From Myxococcota bacterium (GTDB lineage: Bacteria; Myxococcota; UBA727; VGSZ01), in contig JBIKRQ010000003.1 in assembly GCA_044349155.1 (NCBI GenBank), forward strand, positions 668-64,667: a DNA stretch of 64,000 nt, in the 5' to 3' direction. The notes below the pieces were generated by a model. That model did no database searches, was not told the DNA's origin, and saw only the letters and a program-made list of their open reading frames with translations. Position 1 is the stretch's first letter, and each line of letters opens with the position of its first letter. Below are positions 36,817-55,685 of this stretch, one piece after another. Made by a program: the position numbers and the translations under genes.

Positions 36817-36926
36817 CGATGTGGCTTCTTCGGCTCGCGCTGAAGAAGCGCCGAAGAAGTTTTGACTGCTCCTTCGGTTGGCGCCGAAGAAGTCACGACG
36901 AAGAAGCAGTGCAGGCAGGAGTGAGT

Positions 36927-38784: not shown

Positions 38785-39321
38785 TCAGCTGCTGGCGAGC
38801 ATTCGCTCGAAGATGCCGATGACGCCGGTGTGCTTGCCGATCACCTGCGCCAGCTTGTTACCGACGATGGCGTACTGCTCGAGCGTAAATCCCGTCGTGG
38901 CCGTCGGCGTTGCCGTGAAGTCGAGGGGTCCACGCACGCGCGCGCTGCTCTCGCGCAGGCCCAGGGCATCGATGCTGTCGGCGACGAAGAAGGCGCGGTG
39001 GTCGTTGGCGGCGGTCACGTACAGCACCGAGCCCGTCGCGTTTTTGATGAGCAGCGTGCCCTCGTGGGGCGCGCTCAGGTCGAGGGCACTCTGCGCGGCG
39101 GCGGGCATCGAGGTGCCCAGAAGCGCAAAGGGCGTGAACTCCACCAGCGACCGCTTTTGTCGACGGAGATTGGCTTCGAACGCCTGCAGGTGGGCTGCCA
39201 CAAGGGCCGCTTGTTGCGCCGCAGGCAGGGCAGCGAAATCAAAGACGAAGGCCTCGGCGTCGCCGCACACGTTGAAGATGGCGACCTGGTTTTGAAACGG
39301 CAGAAGCGAAGCGTGCAGCAT
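38785..39321 (-). CDS. hypothetical 178-aa protein downstream of the retron RT
   Basis: Clean ORF with typical codon usage, 194 nt downstream of the RT stop on the same strand. No recognised domain. Confidence 0.55.
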   Translation of the reverse strand: MLHASLLPFQNQVAIFNVCGDAEAFVFDFAALPAAQQAALVAAHLQAFEANLRRQKRSLVEFTPFALLGTSMPAAAQSALDLSAPHEGTLLIKNATGSVLYVTAANDHRAFFVADSIDALGLRESSARVRGPLDFTATPTATTGFTLEQYAIVGNKLAQVIGKHTGVIGIFERMLASS

Positions 39322-39514
39322 GACGGCGTCCTCGAAGAGACGGTCCGTCTACAGCTTCGACGTCGTCATGGGTGTGCGCAAGATCGCAGCAGCGGCACAA
39401 CGGTTGGTCGTGCCGAACGCGCTGTCGTGTTGATTGGCGGGGATGTTCCCCGCCCTCAAAAGCCACCTCGGCGACGAAACCGCAAAGCCGGTTTCCTCTT
39501 CGAGGTTCGTGGCG

Positions 39515-40960
39515 CTACTCGCCGAGGGTGGCCAGTTCAGCGAGGAAGCGTTGCCCCTTCACGGGGTCGCTTTGGTAGATGAACGACGCCAGACCGCGCA
39601 GCTGCGCCAACGACTCGCCCTCTTTGCCGGGCTTGCCACGACGACGGTTGTTGATCGCCGCTCGCAACGTACGAGCCACTTCCCGCGGCGGACGCGTCGC
39701 TGCCGAAGTACTCCCATCGGGGCGCTTGTTGATGACGAGGCCCGTGACGACCTGGCGCGTGCCACCACCCATCACAGTGGTCTTCTTGTCGTTGAGGACG
39801 AAGCCCTCGTTGCCAAGGATGCTCTTCACCCCGTGCAGCAGCACACCAACGGGTGCTTTCGGCCCGCGGAAGCTGAAGGCGAGGTCGTCGGCGTAGCGCG
39901 TGTACGTGAAGCCGTGACGACGTGCCAAACCCGCCATGCGCTTGTCGAGACGCACGCAAATCGCGTTGGTGATCATGGGCGACGCGGGTGAGCCCTGCGG
40001 CAACGCGCGCGGCCCCGTGGCCACAAACAGCGTGTCCATCGTGCCGGGCGTGCGGCTGAATTCGACGACGTCACGGGGGCTCTCGGTGCACAACAGCGCC
40101 ACCACGGTGGCGACCTGCTCGGTGAGGCCAGCGTGACGCAACAAGCCCTTCACGCGCGGAAACGTGATGCTCGGAAAGAAGTCTTTGATGTCGACTTTGA
40201 CGACGACATCAGCCCCCGCGTGCACGAGCGCGTTGGTCTGAATGCTGCGGTTGGGCAAAAAGCCGTGGGCCGCGTTGTGCACCGTCAAACGGTCGAGCAG
40301 GCGATCGAGCACCTCGCGCTGCACCCGCTTGAGCTCGGGCTTGGGCGCTGTGATTTGACGAGGAGAACCATCGCGCTTCGGGATGGTGAACCGCACGTAG
40401 TGCGAGCCGGTGTCGACGTCGGCGTGGTAGGCGAGCCAGCGCAACCGCGACACGCTCACGCCCAACGCCTTGGCCAATTCGACGGGCGAATTCCACGCGG
40501 GCAGACCAAGGTCTTTCGCGCGTTCTTCGCGACGTTCAATATCGAACGCGTCGATGTTGACATGGTCGTTGTAAAACACACCAGAACCCAGATGATTCAG
40601 GTGCGTTGCCGTATAGGCCTGCCACGCCAACTTCTGCAGTTTGCGTGTCTCTGAAGCCTCGGCCTTCTTGCGGTCTTTGTAGGTCTTCTTCTGCGCGTCG
40701 GTCAGCGTGGCCGGGTCGTCGGCGACGTACAGGCCAGCCTTCACCAGCTCGGCCTGGATCCACTTTTTGGTGCCGCCGGCTTCGTCGATCGCGGCCTGGC
40801 GGGCCACGTGAACGGCACGAGCCGCAGCGGCTTTGTCGCGCTCTTGCTGAGCCAACGTCGCGAGCGCTGGGGTCAAGGCCGGCTCGACCGCGATGGTGTC
40901 GGTCGTAGCGGCACGCGCCCGGGGAAGATCGGCGCGAAGGAGGGTGTCGTTGGGCTGCAT
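39515..40960 (-). CDS. retron-type reverse transcriptase with ~190-aa N-terminal extension
   Basis: RFTIPKRDGSPRQITAPK, VKVDIKDFFPSI, LPQGSPASPMITN, YTRYADDLAFSF (YADD) and RQVVTGLVINKR (retron VTG motif). ATG at 40960 is preceded by AGGAG (40969-40973). The track start at 41020 is a GTG inside the a1 repeat. Confidence 0.88.
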   Translation of the reverse strand: MQPNDTLLRADLPRARAATTDTIAVEPALTPALATLAQQERDKAAAARAVHVARQAAIDEAGGTKKWIQAELVKAGLYVADDPATLTDAQKKTYKDRKKAEASETRKLQKLAWQAYTATHLNHLGSGVFYNDHVNIDAFDIERREERAKDLGLPAWNSPVELAKALGVSVSRLRWLAYHADVDTGSHYVRFTIPKRDGSPRQITAPKPELKRVQREVLDRLLDRLTVHNAAHGFLPNRSIQTNALVHAGADVVVKVDIKDFFPSITFPRVKGLLRHAGLTEQVATVVALLCTESPRDVVEFSRTPGTMDTLFVATGPRALPQGSPASPMITNAICVRLDKRMAGLARRHGFTYTRYADDLAFSFRGPKAPVGVLLHGVKSILGNEGFVLNDKKTTVMGGGTRQVVTGLVINKRPDGSTSAATRPPREVARTLRAAINNRRRGKPGKEGESLAQLRGLASFIYQSDPVKGQRFLAELATLGE

Positions 40961-41003
40961 TCGGCGGACTCCTGGACTCTCACTCACCGGGCACAAGGGT
41001 GGC

Positions 41004-41387
41004 GAAAGGAGCAGGCTCACACGGTGCTTCTGATTCGATGACGACGTGGCAGGTCGGTAAGTCTCGGACAGGGATGGCGCAGATCACCATCATTCATGGG
41101 GCATCGGATGCCTCACCGGCTCGCCGGGGGAGAGCACTACGGAGTGCTTCCCTCCACGGCGGTCGGCGTCGTGGGCTCAGCGAGGGAAGCACTCCGTAGT
41201 GCTCTCCCCCGAAGCGAGCCAAGAACAGGCATCCTTGCGGAGGATGTCAGGCGAAGTTCCAGATCGACGCAACATCGATCGTGTGCGCGAGGCACAACGG
41301 CTGAGCCGCAAACCATCCCTGACCGATTCCTACCCAAGCTGTTCGGACGTCATCGGTATTGAAGCGTCGTGTGAGCGTGCTCCTTTC
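41004..41387 (-). ncRNA. candidate retron msr/msd non-coding RNA locus
   Basis: A 19/20-nt inverted repeat (41004-41023 against 41368-41387) brackets the region. Inside is a perfect 29-bp stem (41126-41154 / 41182-41210, 27-nt loop), extended by 41118-41124/41214-41220 and 41106-41112/41228-41234. It lies immediately upstream of the RT on the same strand. Confidence 0.75.
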
Positions 41388-41428
41388 TCATCCATCTGCG
41401 AACCGGCTCCTCACATGAGCATGGTTCG

Positions 41429-43270
41429 TCAACCCAGCGAGCGATCGGCGTCGAGAAAGCCATCTTTCATCAACACGTCCAGCCGCTGGAAATAAGCATC
41501 GCGCGCTTCGGAATCGGTGTCAAACCAGATCCGCGAGTGTCTCGCCTGTTCAAGGGCCAAACCCCACTCCAAACGCACAATTTTGTCGTCGAGTGAGACG
41601 CGCATCACAGTTTGCTTGCCCGTGGCCTGGTCGCGACGCAGCAGCGTGCGCGTTTCGGCGCGAACCAGCTGGCGACCTTCGGGGCTGTTGCGGCGTTCTT
41701 CGTCGAGCACACGCTGACGACCGAAGGCCACACGCAAGGCGATCATGTGCGCGCACGGACCCTCGCGCATGCCGGTACGACGGTAGTGCGGGCAGCTGCA
41801 CCAGGCGTCGGAGACACGGCCCTCGACGTCGGTGGTGAAGCGCGGGGCGTAGACGCGGTCGGCGGTTTTGTCTTTGACCTCGCCCACCACGTCGATGCCG
41901 TCGTGGCCGCGGTCGTGCAGCTTGGTGACGTTGACCGCGCCCTTCACCGACAACAGCCGGTGCGCTTCGCGCTCGCGCTCGCTGCCAAAGGCGGTGACCT
42001 CGTCGTCGACGGCGACGCCGAAGATGCTGCGCGGACGGTACACGCCATCGGCGATGTCGAAGGCCACCTGCCCGCGCAAACACAGGCGCTGCAGGCCACC
42101 GCGCACGTCGACGACGGGCTTCTTTGTCTTTGCCACCAACGCTTCGAGCGTTTGTGGGCCGTCGGTGTTCAGCGTTTTCTCAAGGGCGCTCAACAACGTG
42201 GCGTCGTTGCTGGAAGGCATGAGCGCGTCGAAGGCGACGGCACTGGCCCAGCTCGATTCGGTCCAGCCCGACAAGCCCAACGTGAGCGTGGCGTTCTCCA
42301 TCTCGACGACGAAGAAGCTCGGCAGGCCTGCACCCAACACGTGCACGTGCACCGCCTTCGCCCACGGCAGCAGACGCTGCAGCAGGGCCAAACGGTTGCG
42401 GCCAAACAAGCGCGCCACACGGGGAGCAGCGCCGGCGAACACGGGGCCGTGGGTCTCGAGCACGACTTCCCAGGGCTCGATGACGACGCGGGGTTTCTCG
42501 CCGGGGATGAGCTCGAAGCGCAGGCCGCGCGGCGGGTTCTTCGCCTTCTTCAAGCGCAGCTGCAGCAGCACGTTGTAGAGGTCGATGGGCGCCAGCGTGC
42601 ACACCGTCGACGGCAACGTGGCCGCCGACTGCACCTGCAGGAATCCACGCAGCCACGCGTTGGGCACATCGAAGCGCGCCTCGCGCACCTCGGTGTTTTC
42701 GGCACTGCGGGCCTCGAGGCGCAGCGGGCGGTAGGCGGGGATGCTCTCGACGTCGCCGAGGACGTGCTTGCCCAGCTCGACGAAGGTGCTGCCGTGGTTG
42801 ACGCTGCGCTCGCTCAACGCAGCATTCTTGATGGCCAGGCGGGCCCAGGCGCTCTCGTCTTTCGAGAAGACTTCGATGCTGACCTCGTCGGGGTGCACCG
42901 TGAGCAGCGGGTCGAGTTCGCGGGTGCTGACGGCGGCCTTGAAGCTTTCTTCGAGGAACGTCTTCTGCGCGTCCCAGATCGCGGCGGTCGCCTTCTTGCC
43001 CTTCTTCATCAAGAACGCGAGGTAGGCGGCGCGGTCACGGCCCTTGTAGCGCAGGTCGCTGTCTTTGATGGCCAACGTCGTCGCCAGCGCGTCGCGAAAC
43101 AGCGCGACGTTGTTGATGGCGGCGAAGAGGCCCACCTTGCTGTCGCGCTGAGCAACAGCGAGCCCGAGCGTGGTGCCGGCTTCAGACGAGGCGGTGTGCG
43201 AACGGCGCGCGTAGCGGACGTCGACGGTGCGGACGTTGCTCGTCGTCGTTTGTGCTTGTGTGCTGGTCAT
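41429..43270 (-). CDS. SWIM zinc-finger protein (YehQ-like architecture)
   Basis: 613 aa. C-terminal CSCPHYRRTGMREGPCAHMIAL matches the CxCx(n)CxH SWIM motif. Its start overlaps the stop of the giant upstream gene (ATGA). Confidence 0.8.
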   Translation of the reverse strand: MTSTQAQTTTSNVRTVDVRYARRSHTASSEAGTTLGLAVAQRDSKVGLFAAINNVALFRDALATTLAIKDSDLRYKGRDRAAYLAFLMKKGKKATAAIWDAQKTFLEESFKAAVSTRELDPLLTVHPDEVSIEVFSKDESAWARLAIKNAALSERSVNHGSTFVELGKHVLGDVESIPAYRPLRLEARSAENTEVREARFDVPNAWLRGFLQVQSAATLPSTVCTLAPIDLYNVLLQLRLKKAKNPPRGLRFELIPGEKPRVVIEPWEVVLETHGPVFAGAAPRVARLFGRNRLALLQRLLPWAKAVHVHVLGAGLPSFFVVEMENATLTLGLSGWTESSWASAVAFDALMPSSNDATLLSALEKTLNTDGPQTLEALVAKTKKPVVDVRGGLQRLCLRGQVAFDIADGVYRPRSIFGVAVDDEVTAFGSEREREAHRLLSVKGAVNVTKLHDRGHDGIDVVGEVKDKTADRVYAPRFTTDVEGRVSDAWCSCPHYRRTGMREGPCAHMIALRVAFGRQRVLDEERRNSPEGRQLVRAETRTLLRRDQATGKQTVMRVSLDDKIVRLEWGLALEQARHSRIWFDTDSEARDAYFQRLDVLMKDGFLDADRSLG

Positions 43271-46200
43271 TTCGTCACCTCGACGCCTTTGCTCTGTTCA
43301 CCGACGCGGCCGCTCCACGAGGGCAGCGCTGTGTCGGGGTGCGATCGCCGCTCGTGGGCCGCGTGCAGGCGCTCCTGACGACGAAGCGCGCGGTAGGCGG
43401 CCTTTCTGGCGGCGGCATCGATCGACTTGTCGCGCGCGAGTTCGCTGAGGCGTTCGCGGGCACTGTCGTCGTCGACACGGGCCAGGGCGTTGATCGCCGT
43501 GGCTTTCGTTGCGGCCTGCTTCGTGGCGGCAATCATCGCCTCGGCATCGCCGATGAGCTTTTGCACGCCAAGCACCGCGGTGTTGTCGTCGGCGAGCAAG
43601 GCAGCATCAGCGGGCGCCATCGACGACAACCGCAGCGGATCGAAGGCCACCGCCGCCTTCGCTGTCTGCCATGGTGTCGATGACAACTTCGCCACTGCGC
43701 GGGCCGCCGCAGCACGGCACACGAGGCTGCTGTCGCGCAGACGCGACACCAAACGCGGCAGGTCGGCGGTGCTGCCGCCTGTGCCCAACACTTCGATGAG
43801 CGTGGCGCGCAGCGTGGCGTTGGTGGTGGCATCGAGCCGTGAACGCGCGAGGTCGGCGGCGCGCGCGGTGTCGATGTGCACCAGGGCGGCGACGACGGCG
43901 TTTTGCACGGTCGGCTCGTCGACGAGACGCAGCTCGGCGGCGACCAACGCATCCGCCAACACCACGCGGTCAGCGCCATTCGCCTTGCGTGCCGCGACGA
44001 TGGCGGCAGCCTCGGCCACCGCACTCGCCTTCGTGCTCGAGAGCACAGACACGAGGGCCGAAGCGGGCACCGTGTCGCGCGCAATCAAGCCCAGACGCAG
44101 GCGCGTGCGCAGCTCGCTGTCGTCGATGGTGACAAGGCGCGGCAACAGCGCTTCGACACTGCCTTCGGCGGCGAGGAAGTTGGCGGCTTCGAGCTTTTCG
44201 TCGTCGTCGTCGCTCTTGTCGAGCACGTGCAGCGCAACGCGGGTCTTGTCGTCGGGGAAGAGCTTCTTGAGGGCCTTGGTCGCGGCCCCGCGGATGTCGT
44301 CGTCCCAGTTCGACAGGCACTCAGCGATGGCGGCTTCGGCTTCAACGGCACCGAGGGCGGCGAGGGCTTCGCAGGCCTCGACGATGACGGTGTCGTTGCG
44401 GTCTTCGTGCACACCGCGCACAAGCAACTGCTTGCTGCGTTCATCGCCAATGGCACGCAGACCGCGCACCGCGCGCCAGGCCACCTGGTCGTCGCTGTCG
44501 TCGATGGCGGTTTCCAGGCGCTCAAAGATGCGCGTGCGCGCTGGCGCATCGGTGAGGTGGTTGTGCAAGCGGCCGAGGCCTTCGAGGGCTGCCTGCTGCA
44601 ACGCCTTCTCGGAAGGCACTTCGGCGGTACCGCCGTCGGCGACGAGCTCGAGTTCCGGCAGCGCGCGCGGATCGCCGAGACGACCAAGGGCCACCAGAGC
44701 TGTCGCGCGGTCGGCTTCTTCCTCGGCCGCACGGCTCACGAGCAACAACGGCACGAGGCACAGGTCGGCGACGGCGGGTCCCTTGACCCACGCCAGCCCC
44801 TCGGCTGCCGAGAGCACCAGCTCACGCGAACCGCGGGTGACGACGTCGACGAGGGGGCCTGTGGGGCTGTCGGTCTTGCGGCAGCGTTCGGCGTAGGCAG
44901 CGACCGCAGCCTTGCGCACGTCGACTTCGCGATCGCTGAAGAGTGCAACCACAGCGTCGTCGGCCACGCTGCCCTTGCCCGAAGCCGACAACTCGGCGGC
45001 GGCCTTGGCGCGCAGCTCGGCGTCAGGCGACGCACACACGATCGAGAAGAAGCGGGCGGCTCTGGCGTCGTCGCGCTTCTTCTTTTTGCCGGTCAGCGTT
45101 TTGCCGGTGTCGTACGCCTCGGTGCGCACGCCGGCGTCGGCGTGCTTGGTGAGCTTGCCCAGGGCATCGAGCACGGCATTCACGTCGTCGACGTGGGCGG
45201 GGATTGCCTTGCCGTCTTTGCCCGTGCGGTCGTCGCACACGGTGCTCAAGGCACCACACAATCCCGGCAGGTCGCGGGCGGTGGTGTCGGCGGCGATGTT
45301 CAACAACGCGGCGGCAGCAGCGCGCGTGCCCAGCGTGGCCAGGGCGTTTCTGGCGCGGCCGATCACCTTGTCGTCGTCGCCGACCGTGAGGCCCACCAGC
45401 GCGTCGAGGGCGCGGGCGTCGCTGCGACCAGCGAGAATCTCCGCGGCGCGCAGCACGAGCCCTTTGTGCTCGCTGTCGAGGGCGGCCACGAGGGCGTCAC
45501 CCACCGAGGCGTCGTCGCGCTTCTTGCTGAGCTGCTCGAGCACCGACAACCGCAGGTCGTCGTGTTCGCTCTTGAGCGCCAAAACCAGGTGCGAAATCGA
45601 GCCCTTGGCGGCGCGGCGTTCCAGCGTTTCGAACGCCAGTTTTCTCACTTCCGCAATGGGCGAATTGACCGCGCGTTCGACCTGGGCCGACACACCGCGC
45701 TCGGCGAGCTCGTCCAACGCCAGGCGGGCCACGTCTTCGGCGCGGGCCATCAGGGCCAGGCCGAGGGCGTCGTCGATGCCACCGCTGGTTTTCTCGAACA
45801 GCTTCTTCAAGCCGCCCAGCGATGCCTTGCGCACGAGGTGCTGACCGTCGTCGAGGGCGCGCATCAGGGCCGGGATGGCCGCTTCGCGACCAAGGCCAGC
45901 GCCACCTTCAGCCGCCAGCGTGACGATGCGTTCGACGGCGTCACGGCGCACACGCTGCCCATCGTCGCCGGTGGTCTGCTGGCGCAGCAGGCCGACGTAG
46001 GCGCCGAAGGCCAACTGCTTGAGGCGGGCGGCTTCTTCGGCCGACACCGGCGGTGTCGTCGACGTGGTCGAGGTGGTGGGTTCGCTGGACGACGAGAACA
46101 CGCGACGCAAGAAGCCGCGCACGCGGGCCACGGGAGCGATGTCGTCGACACTGCTGGTGGGACGCGGGCGGTTGTCGGGCGTGTGCGGTGACGACGTGGA

Positions 46201-49200
46201 ACGCAGGCGCACGGCGTCTTCGGCGGCCTTGAAGAAGGCCTTCGCGTCGGCACGGTGCAACAGCGCTGAGGCGGCGGCGTAGCGCTGCTCGGGGCGGTCA
46301 GCACACAGGGCATCGGCCAGCTGCAGCATGAGCCGCGAGCGGTTTGCGTCGTCGCGCATCGCCTCGGGCCAGGCCTTCAATTCTGCTGGTTTTTCGGGCT
46401 TCTCGGGCGACAGCACGCTGACCAGGTGGGCCTGGTAGGCACTGCCTTCGCCCACACCCTGGTGGCGCAATTCGAGCGCACGGGCCGCCGCAAAACGCAC
46501 CTCGGGGCGGGCCGCCGACAACGCCGCCGCGAGCACCGTGGGGGCTTCACCACGACGAGCAAGGCCAAGGTCGTAGGCGAGCACGATGCCGAAGACGAGG
46601 AGTTCGACTTCCAGCGTGTCGTCGTCGAGCCCCTGCAACAGGCCCGCGTGGCCGTCGGCACCAAAGGCCGCGTAGGCGAGCACCGCTCCTCGACGGATGG
46701 GCAGGTTGTCGTGCTTGAGCGTGCCCGCGAGCACGGGCAGGCAGCGCGCATCGCCCAGACGCGCAAGGCCCTCAGCGGCCCACGAGCGCACCCACACATC
46801 GGCGTGGCCGATGGCATCGAGCAGGTACTGCTCGTCGCCACGACGGGTGGCGGTGGCCAAACCACGGGCGGCTTCTTCTCGGATGCCTGGGTGCGCATCT
46901 TTGAGCAGCTCGGTGGCGAAGAAGCGCACAAGACCGGGCTTGCCCAACGTGGCCAGCGAGGCCGCTGCACGTCGACGAAGCGCGTCGGCACCATCGGCAC
47001 CAAACAAGCGCACGAGTTCGTCGCGGTTGTTGATGATGCTCTTCATCGCATCAACGGCGACGTCGTCGTGGCGCAGGGCCAGCAGTTCACCAGCGCGCAC
47101 GCGCACGTCGTAGTGGTTGCTGGCGATGGCGGTGACCATCGGGCCCTGCTCGCTTGGCAACAGCGCATCGAGGGTGTCGACCGCAGCCAAACGCGTGGGC
47201 GCGTGGTCGTCGAGCAACGCCTTGATGAGTGCACTGCGCACGTCGTCGGCACGGCAACGACGCACCTGACGCGCAGCACTCGCGCGCACGCTGCCGTGGA
47301 TCGAGGCGAAGGCCGCCAGATGCGCGGCTGCGTCGTCGACGGCGTTGGCGCGGACACCGTTGTCGTCGAGCGGATTGCGACGCTTCACCAGCGCGTCGTA
47401 AGCGGCGGTGGCGACACTCTCGTCGAGGTCGGCGATGGTCGTGAGCAGCTGCTGCTCGGCCCACGGCACGCTCGCGATGGTGCTGCCCTTCGGCGGGGCG
47501 AGGATGGCGTCGAGTTCGGCGACAGCGACGAGGCGCGTGTCTTTGAAGCGCGCGCTGCGCAAACGAGCCAGCGTTTTGGCCTTGTCGTCGCCGGCCCAAC
47601 CGAGGGCGGTTTTGGTGGCTTCGGCGCGGACCTTGGCGCTCTCGTCGTCGAGGGCCTCGTCGAGCAGGGCGCGGTGGTCCTTCGTGTGCGACGTGCCCGC
47701 GGCCTTCAGCAGCGTTTGCAACGCACGCACGCGGATGTCTTCGGCGGCGCTGCGCAGGCCCACGTCGGCGACGACGAACGGGTCGTTCTCGCCGGCGGCG
47801 AAGGTGTCAAACGCCGCGCCGCGCACGTTGGCGCTCTTGTCGTTGAGCAACCACACCAGACGCGTGCGGGCGTCGTCGTTCTTCCACGCACCAAGCAACG
47901 CAGCGGCGGCGCGGCGGAAGTTCTCGTCGTCGTGACGCGAGAGCTGCAGCGTTGCACCCAATGCACGCGTGTCGCCGAAGGCCGACAACGCCCACGCACC
48001 ACGCATCGCGGTGTCGGGCAGGCGCGAAGCGAGGGCGAGCAGCATGGGGCGATTGTCGTCGTCACCTCGCTCGGCACCGCCGTCTTTCGGCAGCGAGGCG
48101 AGGGCGGCGGTCGCCACGGTGTCTTCGATCATCTTGTCGAAGGTTTCCGCCTGCACCTGGGCCACGCGGCGGCCGATGTCGAGGAGCTTGCGGGCAAACG
48201 TGGGGTCGTCTTGCAGGCGTGCCAGCGGCTTGCGCAGGGCCACGGCCAACGCGAAGGCGCGGTCGCGGGTGGCGAAGTCGTCGTCGTCAAACGCGCGGGC
48301 GAACAGGTCGGCCAACGCCGGATCGCGGTGCAGGCCAAGGATGGCCGTCCGCACCAACGCATCGAAGCGCACCGTGGCGTTGCCGCGGATGATCGCCATG
48401 CGCAGCGCGTTCTGACGGTCAGCACTGACCTCGAGCAACGCGCCCAAAGCCGTGGCGGCCACGACGGGATCGCTGTCGACGAGGCGCTTGCCGATCAAAC
48501 CTGCAGCGACACTCGCATCGGTACCGGTCTTGAACGTCGCCAGCTTCTTCAACGACGCGATTCGACGATCGGCTGCCGTGCTGCTCAACCCCGCGCGCGG
48601 GGCCGCAAACACGTCGCCAGGCTCAAGCGCCGCGAGGGCGTCGTAGGCGGCAAGACGCACCGTCGCGTCTTTGTCGCTCAGCGACGTCTTCAGTGCAGCA
48701 CGTGCCAGACGGGCGGGGGCCGACGTGGGCACGCGCTGGCCGAGGCCTTTGGCCACCAACACGCGCACTTCGGCGTCTTTGTCGTTCGCCAACGTTTCGA
48801 GCAGCAGCGAAATCGCTGCGTCGTCGTCGAGACCGGCCAACCACGCCACGGCTTCTTCACGACGAGCGCGGGCACCCGAGAGTGCGTCCTTCGCTTTGTC
48901 GTAGCCATTGAGCAGCGGCTCGCCCGACGCCCAGTCGTTGGGCCCTGTCATCGTGCGGCGGTGCACCTTGCCCGCCACGTTGCTCAAAAACAGCGTGCCA
49001 GCGCCGGTGAGCTTGTCGCCCTTTTCCACCTTCGGCACGACGCACAGGGCAGTCAGCTGACCACCGAGCTCGTCGACAGTGCGGGGCTTCTTCTTGTCTT
49101 CGAGGCGCCAGCCCTTGAGGCTGCCGTCGACACCAATCGAGTAGAGGCGGTCTTCGGTGGTGCCATCAACCGCGGCAGCCCCCGACGACACAAACACCAG

Positions 49201-49860
49201 ACCACGCACGCCGCCGTCGTGGCCGCTCTTGTCGGCTCCGCGCACTTCGGCGTCGGCCGCACCCGTGAGGTACCACAGGCGCAGGGTGCCATCGTCGCCA
49301 CCCGAGGCCACGCGGCCATCGCGCACAAACGCCAACGCGCTCACGCCACCGTCGTGGCCCACCATTTTGCGGGCCGCATCGTCGAGACGCGCGCGCAAAA
49401 ACGTGGTGACCACACCGTCGTCACCACCGACCGCGATGTGCGTGTCGTTGATGGCCACAGCGCGCAAACGACGCTCGGTCACGCGCGTCCGATGGACCTC
49501 AGCAAACCCCGCGGCTTCGACGACGACGACGTGGCCGTCGGCGAGCGCGCACACCACGTGCTTGCCAGCAGCAGCGAGTGCCGTGACCGCCGAGCCGAGG
49601 TTCGGGCCAACGGTGACCGCCCCTTCATCGGTGACGAGGCGCAACAGGCCATCGTCAGCACCGACGACGAAGCCGCCGTCGACGGCGACAACGCTACGGC
49701 CCGCACACGGCAACGCCGCGGTGGCCTTCGGCTTGTTGCCGACGTGATCGAAAATGGTGACGGCACTGTCGCCGCGCGCGCGCTCACCGACGACGGCGAT
49801 GAGGCGAGCGGTGGCAGCAAGAGCGCGGGGTGTTTCTGCGTGGCCAAGAAAGACAGGCAT
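43267..49860 (-). CDS. 2197-aa protein: N-terminal WD40-like beta-propeller followed by ~1850 aa of HEAT/PBS-lyase-type repeats
   Basis: N-terminus has GHDGGVSALAF..DGRVASGGDDGTLRLW type blades. After that come dozens of D..VR..AA.AL repeats. A single uninterrupted ORF with typical codon bias. Confidence 0.8.
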   Translation of the reverse strand: MPVFLGHAETPRALAATARLIAVVGERARGDSAVTIFDHVGNKPKATAALPCAGRSVVAVDGGFVVGADDGLLRLVTDEGAVTVGPNLGSAVTALAAAGKHVVCALADGHVVVVEAAGFAEVHRTRVTERRLRAVAINDTHIAVGGDDGVVTTFLRARLDDAARKMVGHDGGVSALAFVRDGRVASGGDDGTLRLWYLTGAADAEVRGADKSGHDGGVRGLVFVSSGAAAVDGTTEDRLYSIGVDGSLKGWRLEDKKKPRTVDELGGQLTALCVVPKVEKGDKLTGAGTLFLSNVAGKVHRRTMTGPNDWASGEPLLNGYDKAKDALSGARARREEAVAWLAGLDDDAAISLLLETLANDKDAEVRVLVAKGLGQRVPTSAPARLARAALKTSLSDKDATVRLAAYDALAALEPGDVFAAPRAGLSSTAADRRIASLKKLATFKTGTDASVAAGLIGKRLVDSDPVVAATALGALLEVSADRQNALRMAIIRGNATVRFDALVRTAILGLHRDPALADLFARAFDDDDFATRDRAFALAVALRKPLARLQDDPTFARKLLDIGRRVAQVQAETFDKMIEDTVATAALASLPKDGGAERGDDDNRPMLLALASRLPDTAMRGAWALSAFGDTRALGATLQLSRHDDENFRRAAAALLGAWKNDDARTRLVWLLNDKSANVRGAAFDTFAAGENDPFVVADVGLRSAAEDIRVRALQTLLKAAGTSHTKDHRALLDEALDDESAKVRAEATKTALGWAGDDKAKTLARLRSARFKDTRLVAVAELDAILAPPKGSTIASVPWAEQQLLTTIADLDESVATAAYDALVKRRNPLDDNGVRANAVDDAAAHLAAFASIHGSVRASAARQVRRCRADDVRSALIKALLDDHAPTRLAAVDTLDALLPSEQGPMVTAIASNHYDVRVRAGELLALRHDDVAVDAMKSIINNRDELVRLFGADGADALRRRAAASLATLGKPGLVRFFATELLKDAHPGIREEAARGLATATRRGDEQYLLDAIGHADVWVRSWAAEGLARLGDARCLPVLAGTLKHDNLPIRRGAVLAYAAFGADGHAGLLQGLDDDTLEVELLVFGIVLAYDLGLARRGEAPTVLAAALSAARPEVRFAAARALELRHQGVGEGSAYQAHLVSVLSPEKPEKPAELKAWPEAMRDDANRSRLMLQLADALCADRPEQRYAAASALLHRADAKAFFKAAEDAVRLRSTSSPHTPDNRPRPTSSVDDIAPVARVRGFLRRVFSSSSEPTTSTTSTTPPVSAEEAARLKQLAFGAYVGLLRQQTTGDDGQRVRRDAVERIVTLAAEGGAGLGREAAIPALMRALDDGQHLVRKASLGGLKKLFEKTSGGIDDALGLALMARAEDVARLALDELAERGVSAQVERAVNSPIAEVRKLAFETLERRAAKGSISHLVLALKSEHDDLRLSVLEQLSKKRDDASVGDALVAALDSEHKGLVLRAAEILAGRSDARALDALVGLTVGDDDKVIGRARNALATLGTRAAAAALLNIAADTTARDLPGLCGALSTVCDDRTGKDGKAIPAHVDDVNAVLDALGKLTKHADAGVRTEAYDTGKTLTGKKKKRDDARAARFFSIVCASPDAELRAKAAAELSASGKGSVADDAVVALFSDREVDVRKAAVAAYAERCRKTDSPTGPLVDVVTRGSRELVLSAAEGLAWVKGPAVADLCLVPLLLVSRAAEEEADRATALVALGRLGDPRALPELELVADGGTAEVPSEKALQQAALEGLGRLHNHLTDAPARTRIFERLETAIDDSDDQVAWRAVRGLRAIGDERSKQLLVRGVHEDRNDTVIVEACEALAALGAVEAEAAIAECLSNWDDDIRGAATKALKKLFPDDKTRVALHVLDKSDDDDEKLEAANFLAAEGSVEALLPRLVTIDDSELRTRLRLGLIARDTVPASALVSVLSSTKASAVAEAAAIVAARKANGADRVVLADALVAAELRLVDEPTVQNAVVAALVHIDTARAADLARSRLDATTNATLRATLIEVLGTGGSTADLPRLVSRLRDSSLVCRAAAARAVAKLSSTPWQTAKAAVAFDPLRLSSMAPADAALLADDNTAVLGVQKLIGDAEAMIAATKQAATKATAINALARVDDDSARERLSELARDKSIDAAARKAAYRALRRQERLHAAHERRSHPDTALPSWSGRVGEQSKGVEVTK

Positions 49861-49863
49861 CGG

Positions 49864-52611
49864 TCACTCCGCGGCGTTGGCCGTCGTCGTCGAAACTGAG
49901 GAAAGGGCGGGACGGCCGTGGGCCGCATCGATGGCGCACAGCGCCTGCAAGCACGCCTGCCACTCGCCCTGGGCAAGCGACCCGGTCATCTCTTCGAGCA
50001 GGGGGCGCACGGCGTTGGCGAACGCCACGTCTTCAACAGCGAGGTCGCGCACGATTTCGATCACGCGGGCCTTCGCCACCGACGACGGAATGCGACGGAA
50101 GCTCTTGTCGTCGCGCGCTTCCATGCTTCTGCCCGGGGGCAGCGCAAACAGCACGCGGCGCAGGAAGCCACGCAGGGCCTCGACGTCGGTGAAGCGGCCG
50201 GCCTCGCCCGACAACACCGCGGGATCGAGCTTGGACGTCTTGGGCTGCCACGACGACGGCTGCCCCGGCTTCACGAACGCGCGTGGGCGGTGCTTCTCCC
50301 ACAGGATGCGCACGGCAAACAGGCGCACTTCGCGGTCGGCCGACGTCATCAGCCACGCCAGACGCTCCTGGCCACCCAAACGCGAGTAGTGGCGACGGAT
50401 GAGTTCCATGCCCGCCTCACGCACGGGACGACGACGGCTCTCGGTGAGCGGGAAGATGGTTTCGGGCGACAGCTCGTCGATCTTTGCCGTGCAGGCGGGA
50501 TCGGCGGCGGGGTCGTCGGCCTTCAACAACGCATCGAGTGCGAGACGACGCACGTCGACCGCGTCGGTGTCGGCGATCTCACCAAGGCGACCCATCACCG
50601 ACCAGCGACGCAGCTCGACCTTCGCGATCGTGACGGCGAAGCGGCGGATGTCTTCGTTGACGTTCTTGAGTGCAGGCCACACGCGCTCGACGCTGAACGC
50701 CGTGCGCGGCAGTTGCGGCTTGAGCCCGAGCTGCTTGGCTTCGGCCTGCTGTGGGCCAATCTCGGTGTGGTGGCAGCGCAAATACGTTTGCGCGAACGTG
50801 CGCAGTGCTGGGGCTTCTGTCGACGACAACGCCAACTCGAACAAGCGGGTGATACCGCGCTCGGTGCGGTTGCTGGTGCCTTCGCCCTCACCTGCGAAGT
50901 CGGCCGGCGCCATGTGCTCGAGCAACGTGCGGTTGGCGAACTCGGCCAGCTGCGCATCCTTGCGGCGCGCGAGCGACAGCAGCCACGGAATGCCCAGGTG
51001 CGACGGCGTGACGAGGTGCTTGTTCGCCAAAATGGCGAGGCCCACGTCTTTGAGGTCGCTGTCGAACAAGAAGCCCTTGGCGCGCTCGATCGACGCTGGG
51101 GTCGACAGCTCGGGGAACTTCTTCACGTCCGACAACCAGCCAGAAACGTCGCTCGCGAGCTTGTCTTTCTTCTTGCTGACGATGTCGAAGAGCCAGTCGG
51201 CACCGATCTCGTCGGTGGGCTTCTTCTTCAGCGCAGCGATGGCCGCGTCGGGGACGTTGTAGTCGTCTTCGAGGCGATCGTCTTCGAGCAGACGCTTGTA
51301 CAGGCCCGTGCTGAAGCTGTGCTTCTTGGCGAGCTTCTCGAACATCTCGAAGCCGTCGTTGTCGTCGTCGAACGCGAGGTCGATGAGCAACTGCTCGGGC
51401 AACTCGGCCGCCGAGAACTGCTCGAGCAACGCCTTGTCGGCAAAGCCCATGAAGCTCTTTTTGCCAAGCAAACGCACGAGCAACGCCGGGCCGAGATCGC
51501 GCGGCGGGATGGCCTTGAGGATGTCGGCCACGACCTTGAGCTCGCTGGCATCACCGTCGTTGAACACGCCCACGAGGGCCTCGTTCGACAACGACGCTTT
51601 CTCACTTCTGACAAACGCCTGGGCGAATTCGCGAACGTTGTTCGAGCGCGAGCGCAGCAGGCGCAGCAGGGCGGGGGCGAGGCCAAGGGCCACCAACTGG
51701 TTGTGCGCGAACGCCGGCACGGCCTTGGCGAGCTCGACGAAGACCTCGTGGCGCGAGACGTTGTCGTCGTTCAACAAGCTCTTGAGCCACGTGGCGTCGG
51801 GGGCCTTGAGCACGTCGGCGTGGTGCTTCTTGAGGGCGGCAAACGCGGCCTGCACCGCCGAGGGTTTGCTGGCACCCTGGATGATCAGCAGCAGCGGCTC
51901 GGGGCGCTTGCTCCACGTCTCGCCCAACATCTTGAACGAGCGGTGCTTGCCGTTGAGCGTGCGCTCGATGTTGCTCGACGCCGACGTGTAGCTGTCGCAG
52001 CGCAGCAGGTACTCGGTGGCCCACCACGGATACAGCTCGGGCATGGCCCGGCCGAGGTCGCGCAGAAAACGCCACGCGCGCTTGTTGAGGTACGTGCGCG
52101 TGGCCCCCGACGACGAGCCACCACCGTTGGGGCAGCGACCAGCAATGGCCGCCCACGTCACGGCGTCGAGTTCGTCTTCGGCCAACTTGCTGACGCGCTT
52201 GATGCCGCCAAAGAAGCCCAGGTCCCACTTCACCTCGTTGACGAGGCTGATGATGAGCGCGCGGCCGGCGTCGAGGCCGTGGGCGTTGCCGTGCTGGTAC
52301 AGGCGCACGATGAGGTCGGCGACGGCGAAGCGCTCGGGCAGCGGGGCCGGCTGGTTCAAAAACGTGCGCCACACCTCGGTGGAGGCCTTGATGCGCTCGG
52401 CCTTGCTGCGCTTGCGCCGGGCCACGCCCAAACGACGCTGCAGCTCGTCGGTGTTGATGGCGCCGCTGGCCTTCTGCTCTTCGTCGGGCTGGGCCAAAAA
52501 GCGCTTGAGCAAACCTGCGGCGTCGACGTCACCGGCGAGCAGCGCGCGCTCGACGTCGGCGAAGGCGAGGCGGGTGTTCTTCTGGTCTTGATCCGACATG
52601 GCTGGCTCCAC
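49864..52611 (-). CDS. 915-aa alpha-helical (ARM/HEAT-like) repeat protein, unknown function
   Basis: Long ORF 3 nt upstream of the giant gene. Helical-repeat character, and a possible relation to DUF4132-type partners of WGR proteins is unverified. Confidence 0.7.
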   Translation of the reverse strand: MEPAMSDQDQKNTRLAFADVERALLAGDVDAAGLLKRFLAQPDEEQKASGAINTDELQRRLGVARRKRSKAERIKASTEVWRTFLNQPAPLPERFAVADLIVRLYQHGNAHGLDAGRALIISLVNEVKWDLGFFGGIKRVSKLAEDELDAVTWAAIAGRCPNGGGSSSGATRTYLNKRAWRFLRDLGRAMPELYPWWATEYLLRCDSYTSASSNIERTLNGKHRSFKMLGETWSKRPEPLLLIIQGASKPSAVQAAFAALKKHHADVLKAPDATWLKSLLNDDNVSRHEVFVELAKAVPAFAHNQLVALGLAPALLRLLRSRSNNVREFAQAFVRSEKASLSNEALVGVFNDGDASELKVVADILKAIPPRDLGPALLVRLLGKKSFMGFADKALLEQFSAAELPEQLLIDLAFDDDNDGFEMFEKLAKKHSFSTGLYKRLLEDDRLEDDYNVPDAAIAALKKKPTDEIGADWLFDIVSKKKDKLASDVSGWLSDVKKFPELSTPASIERAKGFLFDSDLKDVGLAILANKHLVTPSHLGIPWLLSLARRKDAQLAEFANRTLLEHMAPADFAGEGEGTSNRTERGITRLFELALSSTEAPALRTFAQTYLRCHHTEIGPQQAEAKQLGLKPQLPRTAFSVERVWPALKNVNEDIRRFAVTIAKVELRRWSVMGRLGEIADTDAVDVRRLALDALLKADDPAADPACTAKIDELSPETIFPLTESRRRPVREAGMELIRRHYSRLGGQERLAWLMTSADREVRLFAVRILWEKHRPRAFVKPGQPSSWQPKTSKLDPAVLSGEAGRFTDVEALRGFLRRVLFALPPGRSMEARDDKSFRRIPSSVAKARVIEIVRDLAVEDVAFANAVRPLLEEMTGSLAQGEWQACLQALCAIDAAHGRPALSSVSTTTANAAE

Positions 52612-52667
52612 ACGGCGACAACAAACGGGGACGTCGACGACACGGTCGACGAAGAGATCGGGTCAGG

Positions 52668-53555
52668 TCAGCTCAACGCACTCTTGCGGCGGTCGCACAC
52701 GACGTCGCCAGCGGGGAGGGCAGCCACGAAAGCAGCGCGGTCGGTGCGTGACTCGATGTGCCCGCGCAACGCCTGCAACCTCTGCGCGGCGATGGCGTCG
52801 GGGAGGTCTTTGTCGACGAGGGCGCGGCCCACGCGAAACGCGAGTTCCTGATCGGGCAGTGCAGCCGCGGTGGCGGCCAACACCTGCAACGCCGACGACG
52901 CCGCACCCGACGGCTTCTGCCAGCGCGCCAACACCGAGGTGAACGCCGACGTGCGCAACGACGACAACACCTGCAGCACCAACGGCAGCGGCAACGACGG
53001 CGCGCTGAGCACGGCATCCGCCGCAGCCAACACGGCGGTGTTCAAGTCGGCGTGGGCAAAAAGGTCGACACCGGCGATGCGCGAGACCGCGCGGGTGGCT
53101 TCTTTGGCGGCCTGACGACGACGCCACGAGCGGCCTGCCGTGCTCTTGACCAGCGCGCGCACAGCGGTGGTGGCGGCTTTGACGAGGGCGGCATCGGTGA
53201 TGTCGGCGTCGACGACGCGCACGGGCAACGGGGTGACGGGCTTCGCGGCCGGCTTCGCAGGCTCTTTGGCGGCGGCCTTCTTCGCGGGCTTTTTGGCGAC
53301 CGCTTCGTCGTCACCGTCGTCGTCGTTGTCGCTTACGGCTGCCGCACCGTCGGTGACCTCGACGTAGCCCTCGCGGAGCTTCTCGGCGACCTTCTTGTCG
53401 TACTCTTTTTGCGCGGCTTCTTCGGAGTCGAACTCTTTTTCTTTGCGCTGCCCGTCGGTGCCGATGCGGCCGTACACGACGGTGAAGACCGAGCCATCGA
53501 GCCGGGGCATCCAGAATTTGCTGCTGCCACCACCGACAAATTCGAAGCGACGCAT
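52668..53555 (-). CDS. WGR-domain protein
   Basis: MRRFEFVGGGSSKFWMPRLDGSVFTVVYGRIGTDGQRKEKEF...KLREGYVEV is a canonical WGR domain. Followed by a Lys/Ala/Pro linker and a helical C-terminal region. Confidence 0.85.
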   Translation of the reverse strand: MRRFEFVGGGSSKFWMPRLDGSVFTVVYGRIGTDGQRKEKEFDSEEAAQKEYDKKVAEKLREGYVEVTDGAAAVSDNDDDGDDEAVAKKPAKKAAAKEPAKPAAKPVTPLPVRVVDADITDAALVKAATTAVRALVKSTAGRSWRRRQAAKEATRAVSRIAGVDLFAHADLNTAVLAAADAVLSAPSLPLPLVLQVLSSLRTSAFTSVLARWQKPSGAASSALQVLAATAAALPDQELAFRVGRALVDKDLPDAIAAQRLQALRGHIESRTDRAAFVAALPAGDVVCDRRKSALS

Positions 53556-53690
53556 CGAGACTCCCGCGAACTACGTTCGACGCGTGCGTGGTCGCGCAAA
53601 TCCCACTGTGGCGTCAAGCAACACACGTCACACACGTTCAGGAGCGCGTTGAGCTGCGCCGACTGTCTCGTCGGCCCGGTGTCTCACGCC

Positions 53691-55685
53691 TCACGACAGC
53701 TGGCGGTAGCGGCGGTGCGCCATGAACAGCACGAACACCAACGCGAAGGCCGCACCACCGCCGAGCCCGTATTTGCGCAGTCGGGCCGCGCGCACGGCGG
53801 CTTCGCGCTCGGCGACGGCGTCGAAGTCGGGGGCGGGGCAGTCTTTGTTGATGTCGCCAAAGGCGTTGGTGAACGGCACCACCGGTCCCTCTTTGACGTA
53901 GCGGTGCCACAGGCGCTGCACGTCGTCGGGGGAGCGATAGCCGTAGTGCGTGGCCTGACACAGCAACGCGGCAAACGCCTGCGAGCGTGGGGGCACGAGG
54001 TCGGCGGCTTGCTCGAGCAGCTTCATGGCCTTGAAGCGGTAGTGAAAACGCGCCGCGGGCACGACCGCCGACGCCGACACGCGCTGCTGCTCGTCGGTGC
54101 TCATCAGCGGCGATGGTGGTTGGGGCGGCAACGGGTGGCCGTCGTCGTCGGTGGGGACGTACGGTTCGTACACGCCGTCGTAGATGGCCCAGTCGGGTCC
54201 AAGCTCGCTGCCCATGAGCTGCAGGCCAGCGGTGCGCACGAGCTTCGCCTCGACGTGCAGATTGGCGGCCTGGCGCAGCTTTGTCGGCAGGTGGGCGGTG
54301 TCGGCGAAGGCGTCGGCGTGCAGCGACTGCAGCTGCTTCAACGTCGCCAGCAGCACCGGATCGTCGACGTACGCCACGGCTTCGTCGAGGCGATCGGCAC
54401 GCACCAGCCGACGCGCCAGCAGCGATCGCAGCGATGGCCGCTCGATGCTGTTGTGCTCGTCGTCGTTGGCCTTGTGCGGTGGGCGAGGTGCTGCGTGGGT
54501 GGGATGGTCGGCGAGAAACGCGATGAGCTCGTCGACGGTGAGCACCTGCTCGGCGACGTGGGCTGCGTCGTGCCACCACACGTCGTCTTCGAGGAAACGC
54601 TCGAGCGCGAAGGCGTACTCGCGCCGCGTCAGGGCCAACACACCAAGCTCGCCGACGACGCGCACGCGGGCGTGGATGTTTTGGTACTGCGGGTCGTCCT
54701 CGCCGGGCTGGTACGGCACCACCGGAAACGCGGCACTGGCCTTCGCCAACAACGTGCGCGCCTCGTCGAGGTTGCCCGCACGCATGGCCAACTTCGCGCG
54801 CACCCACGTGGCCAGCGGTGTGTCGGGGGCTTGCTGCACGATGCGCGCAGCCTCGTCGACGCGGCCCTGCCCGTACAACGCTGCCGCGAGTTGGTCGGCA
54901 GCGTCGACGTGGTCGAGGGCGACGAGCACGTCGAGGGCGCGGTTGGTGTTGTTGGGCCGCTCAACGGCGCGCGTGGCCCCGTACAGGTTCAGCAGGCGTT
55001 GCCCGATCGGCGTGGCCGCGGCTTTCGCGAGGCGCTCACCACCGTCGTCGATGATGGTGCGGGCCACCTGCAGCAACGAGATGGCACCAGCGGGATCGAA
55101 GCGCGCCTGACGCGCGTACAGCGTGATGGCCGTGGCGTCGTCGACGATGGTGCTGCCCGCGGGCGCGTGCCCCGGCAGGTACCAGCGCGCTTCTTCGCCA
55201 AGGCTTGCGGCGGCAAGGCCGAGCTCGTCGGGATAGCCCTCGCTGGCGAGGGCGCGCACCTCGGCGAAGCGCGCGACCTCGCCCAGGCGCCCCAGCATGA
55301 ACGCGGCCCACGTGCTGCGTTGACGACGTTCATCGGGCGGCAGTTGCAACAGCGCCGTAAACGCCGCGCGGGCCGCGTCGTCGTCGTGCTTGTGAAACGC
55401 GGCGGCACCGGTGTCGTACAGCTCGCGCTCGCGGGCCCCGCCACGGTCGCGCGCACCAGCGGGTTCTTCGCCCACGGCGACAAACGACGGATCCGCGGGG
55501 GCGATGCCATCAGCGAGGTGCCGAACGTCGACGAGAAAGGGCTCGTCGATCGGTGCCTGCAGTGACTGCTCGCGGTCTTGCAGCAAGCTGGGTGGAAAGT
55601 CGGGCCCGCAGGCCACAGCGCGCGGCGTGTACGACGACACACCCAAAGCGGCGATCAACAACGACGTGGTGAACGAAGCGCGCAT
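53691..55685 (-). CDS. secreted/C-terminally anchored helical-repeat (TPR-like) protein
   Basis: ATG at 55685 gives MRASFTTSLLIAALGVSS signal. C-terminal TM AAFALVFVLFMAHRRYR. The upstream part of the track ORF overlaps repeat copy B and is rejected. Confidence 0.6.
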   Translation of the reverse strand: MRASFTTSLLIAALGVSSYTPRAVACGPDFPPSLLQDREQSLQAPIDEPFLVDVRHLADGIAPADPSFVAVGEEPAGARDRGGARERELYDTGAAAFHKHDDDAARAAFTALLQLPPDERRQRSTWAAFMLGRLGEVARFAEVRALASEGYPDELGLAAASLGEEARWYLPGHAPAGSTIVDDATAITLYARQARFDPAGAISLLQVARTIIDDGGERLAKAAATPIGQRLLNLYGATRAVERPNNTNRALDVLVALDHVDAADQLAAALYGQGRVDEAARIVQQAPDTPLATWVRAKLAMRAGNLDEARTLLAKASAAFPVVPYQPGEDDPQYQNIHARVRVVGELGVLALTRREYAFALERFLEDDVWWHDAAHVAEQVLTVDELIAFLADHPTHAAPRPPHKANDDEHNSIERPSLRSLLARRLVRADRLDEAVAYVDDPVLLATLKQLQSLHADAFADTAHLPTKLRQAANLHVEAKLVRTAGLQLMGSELGPDWAIYDGVYEPYVPTDDDGHPLPPQPPSPLMSTDEQQRVSASAVVPAARFHYRFKAMKLLEQAADLVPPRSQAFAALLCQATHYGYRSPDDVQRLWHRYVKEGPVVPFTNAFGDINKDCPAPDFDAVAEREAAVRAARLRKYGLGGGAAFALVFVLFMAHRRYRQLS

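Follow-up and report, generated by a model that had tools for sequence, protein, structure and literature searches.

Assignment to type XIII of a retron with WGR, HEAT/ARM and SWIM partner genes from an uncultured Myxococcota bacterium

What kind of retron lies at the end of an operon for a WGR-domain protein, two helical-repeat proteins and a SWIM zinc-finger protein, and do these genes belong to it? The question is raised by positions 39515-53555 (minus strand) of a 64,000-nucleotide (nt) stretch, hereafter the window, of contig JBIKRQ010000003.1 (GenBank assembly GCA_044349155.1, positions 668 to 64,667) from an uncultured Myxococcota bacterium. Five co-oriented open reading frames (ORFs) occupy this region in the order WGR protein, helical protein, giant WD40/HEAT protein, SWIM protein and reverse transcriptase (RT), and all show the third-position G+C bias of real genes in a window whose G+C content is ~67%. 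A 384-nt gene for a retron non-coding RNA (ncRNA) is sited between the SWIM stop codon and the RT gene on the same strand. A first-pass annotation, made from the sequence alone, had presented this arrangement as a candidate new retron-associated system and had stated that WGR, SWIM and giant HEAT partners are unknown among described retron types. Our analyses indicate, with a probability that we place near 0.93, that the locus is a complete type XIII retron of the Mx162/Mx65/Sa163 family residing in the chromosome of its host.

Assignment to type XIII and conservation of the gene set

The identity of the locus was assessed by scanning its proteins with the RT_XIII, SWIM_XIII, HEAT-ARM_XIII and WGR_XIII profiles of PADLOC-DB 2.0, and all five were found to match type XIII profiles (Table 1). 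The RT aligns with profile positions 17-423 of 469 of RT_XIII at a score of 471 bits, compared with 295 bits for the next best PADLOC profile, RT_other. Type XIII was described by Mestre et al. in 2020 as RT clade 10, with Mx162, Mx65, Ne144 and Sa163 as members (PMC7736814). Its primary protein (cluster 114_1) carries a 'DEDE' motif, a winged helix and a C-terminal SWIM finger of the form CxCx12CxH, and is preceded in most type XIII retrons by a WGR-like-HEAT/ARM protein and in some by two HEAT/ARM genes; co-evolution of RT and accessory proteins and a type-specific ncRNA were also noted (PMC7736814). The corresponding components are all present here, namely the RT clade profile, a SWIM finger protein, two HEAT/ARM genes, a WGR domain and an ncRNA upstream of the RT. 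The proposal of a new retron-associated system is therefore refuted by the profile matches and the 2020 classification, and the claim that such partners lack precedent is wrong because Mestre et al. define type XIII by exactly these partners (PMC7736814).

The RT itself has the expected features of the group. Its start is probably the ATG at 40960 within an ORF that extends from 39515 to 41020, because the resulting protein of 481 amino acids (aa) fits the lengths of its homologues (469-488 aa) and begins at a conserved M1. Retron RTs are defined by NAxxH and VTG motifs, and YADD is the catalytic motif. The window protein carries NALVH, YADD and VTG, and the residues N243, A244 and H247, Y356, A357, D358 and D359, and V405, T406 and G407 are invariant in an alignment of 14 sequences (alignment A1). 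An N-terminal extension of ~170 aa, typical of the Mx162 clade, precedes them. The closest homologues derive from uncultured Myxococcota, with 97% identity to a protein from a JGI metagenome and 70-86% to those from other metagenome contigs and metagenome-assembled genomes. The RT differs more strongly from those of type XIII retrons in cultured myxobacteria, being just 53-58% identical to representatives from Archangium, Hyalangium, Sorangium, Corallococcus, Myxococcus and Chondromyces.

When compared with the named members Mxa1 (Mx162), Mxa2 (Mx65), Sau1 (Sa163) and Nex2 (Ne144), the locus shares the RT clade, a homologous ncRNA core and a Myxococcota host. Gene order and orientation, the CxCx12CxH finger of the SWIM protein, the pair of HEAT/ARM genes, the WGR domain and the length class of the msd (~166 nt here versus 162-163 nt) are likewise those of Mx162-type retrons. 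The locus differs from these members in that its WGR domain, which many type XIII systems have fused to the HEAT/ARM protein, is neither fused nor absent but encoded in a gene of its own. It also differs from Mx162-type retrons in having an extra 40-nt outer a1/a2 stem and in residing in a genome with flagellar genes.

Conservation of the gene set was surveyed from both ends of the locus. On the RT side, 80 genomic loci around RT homologues were searched with the window proteins. A co-oriented SWIM homologue (39-72% identity) is encoded upstream of the RT in 63 of the 64 loci whose upstream DNA extends for at least 3 kb, and the giant gene is present in 56 of the 58 loci where it extends for at least 9 kb, many of which also show the 3' end of a helical gene at the fetched edge. 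On the helical side, 51 metagenome loci were obtained from an alignment of helical-protein homologues. The order helical, giant, SWIM, RT is retained in all of those with enough downstream DNA except L087 and L106 (surveyed loci are labelled L), so that at least 17/19 loci lead to giant, SWIM and RT genes. In L106 an insertion intervenes and these three genes follow on that contig after another ~15 kb, and the L087 sequence ends after ~10 kb. Identities to the window proteins are also correlated across loci (r=0.84 for RT and giant, 0.68 for RT and SWIM, 0.53 for RT and helical).

The genes that flank the locus, which encode proteins of 178 and 304 aa downstream of the RT and a 717-aa tetratricopeptide repeat protein upstream of the WGR gene, are conserved in no relative. 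The conserved unit therefore consists of the helical, giant, SWIM, ncRNA and RT genes, with the WGR gene as a variable extra. The retron and its helical, giant and SWIM genes are one conserved module, not a chance association, and the independent occurrence in relatives that the first-pass annotation had named as the outcome that would overturn its proposed linkage was not observed. This type XIII system is near-universal over Myxococcia and Polyangia genomes.

The sole exception to SWIM linkage, L045, is a 20-kb locus of Archangium violaceum Cb vi76. Its RT and its ncRNA, which is flanked by a1 and a2, belong to the clade surveyed here, but SWIM, giant and helical genes are missing from the 10 kb to each side. 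L045 may represent an additional retron copy that lacks accessory genes, a situation resembling that of M. xanthus with its two retrons. Other relatives carry foreign genes within the module. A type II restriction-modification pair directly follows the helical gene in L087 (2986-5418), and the same site is occupied in L106 (12753-14666, continued at 1-3334 of L136 on the same contig) by the ~15-kb insertion, which holds a GajA/OLD-like ATPase, an MFS transporter, a sigma-70 factor, a radical SAM enzyme and a deoxynucleoside monophosphate kinase. In the Archangium loci L006, L009, L015, L027 and L042, insertions of 1.4-8.6 kb part the SWIM gene from the retron RNA gene; among the inserted genes are a Tox-REase-5 toxin with an Imm52 immunity gene (L009, 7262-9462) and a MoxR(AAA_5)-DUF5682-VWA cassette with Imm52 (L042, 1456-9467). 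Several of these loci have an ORF of the size of Imm52 (240-260 aa) immediately upstream of the ncRNA, and the Pfam Imm52 match itself is found in L009 and L042 only. These inserted defence and toxin cassettes are consistent with a conflict-system neighbourhood.

Table 1. Components of the retron locus in window coordinates.
Feature	Position	Strand	Evidence
WGR protein, 295 aa	52668..53555	-	Pfam WGR 7.6e-18
Helical ARM/HEAT-repeat protein ('H915'), 911 aa	49864..52599	-	PADLOC HEAT-ARM_XIII PDLC02921 2.4e-190
Giant WD40+HEAT protein, 2197 aa	43267..49860	-	HEAT_2 3e-55; PADLOC HEAT-ARM_XIII PDLC02919 1e-300
SWIM zinc-finger protein, 613 aa	41429..43270	-	PADLOC SWIM_XIII 3.8e-142; Pfam SWIM 4e-4
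Retron ncRNA gene (msr-msd), outer a2 to outer a1	41004..41387	-	inverted repeat, fold, alignment
Inner a2	41313..41334	-	pairs with inner a1 41056-41077
Predicted branching G	41301	-	G of invariant CAG, homology with Mx162
Predicted msd template, ~166 nt	41087..41252	-	homologous interval in relatives
Retron RT, 481 aa	39515..40960	-	PADLOC RT_XIII 8.2e-142; Pfam RVT_1 1e-20

The components of the locus are closely packed. The giant stop codon and the SWIM start codon overlap by 4 nt, the helical and giant genes are separated by 3 nt, and the gap between the WGR and helical genes is 56 nt with a GTG start or 68 nt with an ATG start of the latter. Only 41 nt separate the SWIM stop codon from the outer a2 repeat. 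A scan with consensus patterns revealed no terminator-like site in this interval (41388-41428), where such a site had been named beforehand as evidence against a joint transcript, and a consensus scan for sigma-70-like promoters was negative across 39000-54500. All features listed in the first-pass annotation were recovered on the minus strand where it had placed them, with gaps as it gave them or close to those values.

Two further observations concern the surroundings. Genes for FlgK and an FlgL-like flagellar hook-associated protein are present at 35278-37808 (plus strand), 1.7 kb from the retron. Cultured myxobacteria are not known to be flagellated, and because flagellar genes reside here beside a retron of Myxococcota type, the host may represent an uncultured lineage that has flagella. 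Elsewhere in the window, a tight operon at 21518-27912 (minus strand) encodes a VWA protein of 857 aa, a MoxR-type AAA_5 ATPase of 319 aa, a 191-aa ORF, an SMC/RecF-like ATPase of 665 aa and a 100-aa ORF, and could be a separate conflict or defence system.

The retron RNA and its predicted msDNA

The RNA gene is bounded by a 40-nt outer inverted repeat formed by a2 (41348-41387) and a1 (41004-41043), which are 80% complementary. Nested within it is a 22-nt inner repeat (82% complementary) whose a2 arm coincides with the a2 of relatives (alignment A5) and thus corresponds to the a2 of Mx162-type retrons. The msd contains a perfect 30-base-pair inverted repeat, 41125-41154 with 41182-41211, whose arms covary among the three closest relatives. 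When folded, a 393-nt RNA from this region has a predicted free energy of -230 kcal/mol (z=-15), and none of 100 shuffled sequences folds as well.

The ncRNA core of the window and of its two closest relatives can be aligned with ncRNAs from Myxococcus, Archangium, Sorangium, Chondromyces and uncultured bacteria. The alignment comprises 11 sequences, those of the window and of 10 other type XIII loci, in which the blocks CAGCC, GCAAGG, GCCTGTTCTTGG and CCGGTGAGGC are invariant or nearly so. RNAalifold predicts 92 base pairs for the consensus, and 58 of these keep pairing through compensatory changes on both sides. The distal msd stem differs wholly in sequence between relatives while its pairing is retained.

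A CAG trinucleotide that follows the inner a2 directly on its 3' side is unchanged throughout the 11 aligned ncRNAs. Its guanosine, G41301, is predicted by homology with Mx162 to be the branching nucleotide that offers its 2'-OH as a primer. The predicted msd template is ~166 nt long, and the multicopy single-stranded DNA (msDNA) made from it would carry the plus-strand sequence of the interval. The homologous interval is 163 nt long in the Myxococcus locus and 163-170 nt over the 11 sequences, and the published Mx162 msDNA is 162 nt. When folded as DNA, the 166-nt msd forms a long hairpin (-67 kcal/mol, z=-12).

The span from a2 to a1 is 384 nt in the window, ~100 nt longer than the 275-289 nt of most relatives, because of the extra outer 40-nt a1/a2 stem and not because of a longer msd. 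This outer stem is shared only by the two closest relatives, L002 and L085. An unusually long msDNA of ~265 nt was considered and rejected, since the alignment shows that core and msd have the same length as in Mx162-type RNAs.

Rfam families had no match at gathering thresholds anywhere in the window. A permissive search of 40900-41500 returned only sub-threshold matches to eukaryotic microRNA precursors on the msd hairpin (41116-41228), which are artefacts of the long perfect hairpin. Rfam thus appears to have no family for the type XIII retron RNA.

The accessory proteins

The WGR domain occupies residues 7-69 of the WGR protein, and the matches of this protein are to WGR domains only. In PARP enzymes, WGR domains contact DNA ends. 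The match of the protein to WGR_XIII is weak (5e-4, profile positions 56-213), and the helical protein matches the same profile at positions 238-349 (5e-24). Because the two proteins cover successive stretches of the WGR_XIII profile, which represents the fusion, we read them as a probable split form of the fused WGR-HEAT/ARM protein, which argues for a functional link between the two. A free-standing WGR homologue lies directly upstream of the helical gene, in the same orientation, in 14 of the 38 loci with enough upstream DNA, and in the remainder the gene at this position is unrelated (scramblase, Laminin_G_3, HAD, T2SSE, MatE and others). These counts were made with first-round phmmer and Pfam searches of upstream ORFs; an iterated WGR hidden Markov model was discarded, having become contaminated by long unrelated ORFs of high-GC sequences, spurious antisense ones included. 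The WGR protein is thus an accessory component, a variable extra in a subset of relatives.

In some relatives, small WGR-domain ORFs are also found after the RT gene (L067, 12635-13479; L071, 1666-2289; L077, 7013-7207) and between the giant and SWIM genes (L078, 6611-6820; L100, 19243-19455), so this component looks positionally mobile within the type XIII module. The window itself encodes a second WGR-domain protein (605 aa, 62156-63973, minus strand; Pfam WGR 1.1e-16 at residues 35-101). Its gene shares the strand of the retron module, lies 8.6 kb upstream of that module, and is followed closely by the end of the window.

For the helical gene, whose ORF extends from 49864 to 52611, the ATG at 52599 is the probable start, because the gene is annotated from there on an identical contig of a public metagenome. 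An exact-sequence look-up of the GTG-start version gave no match, and that of the WGR protein led to identical metagenome contigs. The helical protein has no Pfam or NCBIfam match, and neither it nor the SWIM protein receives a family name from these databases beyond generic domains. An AlphaFold2 (AF2) model of its C-terminal 352 aa, with a predicted local distance difference test (pLDDT) score of 89, is an all-helical ARM/HEAT solenoid whose best Foldseek matches are armadillo and importin repeats. The protein corresponds to the repeat portion of the WGR-HEAT/ARM fusion that other type XIII retrons encode. In the giant protein, Pfam HEAT_2 matches nine stretches and WD40/beta-propeller families match at about residues 60-280, near the N terminus; its PDB sequence matches are limited to WD40 and alphaRep/HEAT proteins. 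A hidden enzyme domain was sought in the accessory proteins, and only repeats were found.

In the SWIM protein, the finger (CSCx12CAH) spans residues 491-508, and C491, C493, C506 and H508 are invariant in an alignment of 38 SWIM proteins. An AF2 model computed from this alignment has a mean pLDDT of 83.4 and a predicted template modelling (TM) score of 0.83. When the model was compared with the PDB by Foldseek, all 50 listed matches were sliding clamps (PCNA, bacterial beta clamp or 9-1-1), with E-values down to 4.5e-7 and target-normalised TM scores of ~0.4-0.70, mostly 0.5-0.7, over ~250-340 columns. Among viral predicted structures (BFVD), most named matches, the best one among them, belong to viral PCNA, DnaN/beta clamps or processivity factors; many others are uncharacterised, and target-normalised TM scores range from about 0.2 to 0.65. 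Root-mean-square deviations of the clamp superpositions are mostly 6-10 Å and reach ~20 Å for long beta-clamp alignments.

The likeness is to the N-terminal ~340 residues, whose four long predicted clamp helices bear the arginines R59, R208, R291 and R293, invariant in alignment A3. This half of the protein is accordingly predicted, from the model, to adopt the fold of PCNA, the beta clamp and 9-1-1. It differs from these DNA sliding clamps in having no detectable sequence similarity to them, and the SWIM protein carries in addition helical insertions and a ~270-aa C-terminal winged-helix/SWIM region. The clamp-like fold is possibly a new detail, as a clamp fold for a retron SWIM protein is mentioned neither by Mestre et al. 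(PMC7736814) nor in other searchable papers.

The E. coli yehF-yehH-yehI / yehLMPQ cluster (WGR, DUF4132, MoxR, VWA and SWIM) resembles the locus in its co-oriented genes for a free WGR protein, large helical proteins and a SWIM protein of ~614 aa. The WGR domains of the two are 38% identical (E=1e-9). However, no MoxR/AAA or VWA gene is present in 39515-53555, and the Yeh cluster has neither an RT nor an ncRNA. The SWIM family profile matches YehQ over the zinc finger only, with a probability of 6%, and the finger is positioned differently in YehQ; the helical protein has no similarity to YehI. Homology of the accessory genes to the Yeh cluster was therefore rejected, as the resemblance is confined to the WGR domain and the SWIM finger.

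Possible functions and competing readings

How might such a retron work? Characterised tripartite retrons (Eco1/Ec86, Sen2, Eco7/Ec78 and others) similarly combine an RT and msr-msd with co-transcribed accessory proteins, and in them, too, RT and accessory proteins co-evolve. Because of this likeness we propose an msDNA-bound sensor complex. The RT would prime on the 2'-OH of G41301 and copy ~166 nt into a long-hairpin msDNA branched to the msr RNA. The SWIM protein, with its predicted clamp-like half, its SWIM finger and the winged helix described by Mestre et al., would bind this msDNA or its ends together with the WGR domain, while the two repeat proteins and the WD40 propeller would scaffold a large complex of RT, msDNA and protein. 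By analogy with characterised retrons, the complex would become active when an invading phage damages or modifies the msDNA. The suggestion of the first-pass annotation that such a complex senses msDNA is plausible, and we give the mechanism as a whole even odds of being correct.

Several observations weigh against this reading of the locus. The searchable literature offers no experimental work on the function of type XIII, Mx162 or Mxa1, and both the production of msDNA here and its termini are predicted from homology. Searches of the C-terminal part of the helical protein and of the giant, SWIM and WGR proteins detected no effector fold, whether of a nuclease, NADase, protease, kinase or other kind. 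By contrast, the effectors of the characterised tripartite retrons can be identified (NDT, PtuAB ATPase-nuclease, Toprim and others), whereas only domains of DNA-binding and scaffold type were detected in the present locus, and its accessory mass of more than 4000 aa far exceeds that of the characterised systems. The clamp-like fold comes from a predicted model, with query-normalised TM scores to clamps of just 0.2-0.3, and the SWIM family profile has no sequence match in the PDB. Finally, the module resides among ordinary chromosomal genes in the window (flagellar, MCP, TonB receptor and TPMT genes), and the distribution of type XIII correlates with host 16S phylogeny, which suggests vertical inheritance and is unusual for defence systems (PMC7736814).

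Mestre et al., who report this correlation and vertical inheritance for myxobacteria, also raise domestication (PMC7736814), and a type XIII retron might have been recruited for housekeeping DNA metabolism or development, with the SWIM and WGR proteins handling msDNA as a nucleic-acid cofactor. This would suit the lack of a detected toxin domain, the ordinary context of the module and its near-universal occurrence in Myxococcia and Polyangia, but flanking genes are unconserved even in the closest relatives, and defence or toxin cassettes have been inserted repeatedly into relatives' loci. Early deletion mutants of Mx162 in M. xanthus, moreover, reportedly had no obvious growth or developmental phenotype. 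A 2026 preprint finds type XIII in Bacillota, Planctomycetota and Bacteroidota as well, which indicates horizontal spread. We consider domestication a possible but rather unlikely explanation.

A more specific arrangement can be imagined from the predicted structures. The SWIM protein could grip the msDNA hairpin like a clamp while the WGR domain reads its end or branch and more than 3000 aa of HEAT/ARM/WD40 repeats serve as a scaffold, forming a large msDNA machine without a classical toxin. If this were true, type XIII would depart in its mode of action from the toxin-antitoxin logic that characterised retrons follow, and might recruit or block a DNA-transaction factor of host or phage or serve a domesticated myxobacterial function. 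We consider this picture unlikely.

The effector might instead be the SWIM protein itself, which Mestre et al. propose to be a transposase-derived DEDE nuclease, in keeping with their grouping of type XIII with nuclease-associated retrons (PMC7736814); the msDNA would then hold it inactive. Its motif can be traced as D120-x7-D128-x4-E133-x31-E165, with glutamate at a fourth position where the consensus has aspartate, and in the 38-sequence alignment D128, E133, D138 and E139 are invariant and D120 is nearly so. However, the fifth residue of the motif could not be located in the protein at the published spacing, the acidic residues fall in predicted beta-strands of the clamp-like region, and the best structural matches described above are to clamps, not to RNase-H-like transposases; the family profile has no sequence match in the PDB. 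A nuclease effector of this kind therefore seems improbable.

Two readings of the locus as a whole fare far worse. An undescribed retron type defined by WGR, SWIM and giant HEAT partners could be suggested by Pfam and NCBIfam, which return only generic domains for the SWIM and helical proteins and leave the locus looking like an orphan when PADLOC and the 2020 classification are not consulted, but the PADLOC-DB 2.0 matches, the published association (PMC7736814) and a 2026 survey in which type XIII is one of the commonest retron groups make it highly implausible. The chance juxtaposition of an independent WGR-HEAT-SWIM operon with a mobile retron, for which L045 and the 1-8.6 kb of foreign genes that part SWIM from retron RNA in some relatives could be cited, has a negligible likelihood given the linkage and covarying identities in the surveys, helical homologues that occur essentially only in giant-SWIM-RT loci, no sign of the many genomes with SWIM_XIII or HEAT-ARM_XIII but without RT_XIII that it would favour, and the fact that the Yeh cluster, the sole E. 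coli locus with the same domain types, shares only the WGR domain and the SWIM finger.

The interpretation of the locus as a complete type XIII retron does not amount to the discovery of a new retron type, as the association was published in 2020 and is represented in defence-annotation databases. Type XIII nevertheless holds the first retrons ever found, Mx162 and Mx65, and the 2026 preprint ranks it with the most abundant retron groups of genomes derived from metagenomes. The present locus provides a clean, uninterrupted example from an uncultured lineage, and its separate WGR gene could ease the genetic dissection of the WGR component. The predicted clamp-like fold of the SWIM protein, together with the lack of a recognizable toxin domain, offers testable, model-based leads on the mechanism of type XIII retrons.

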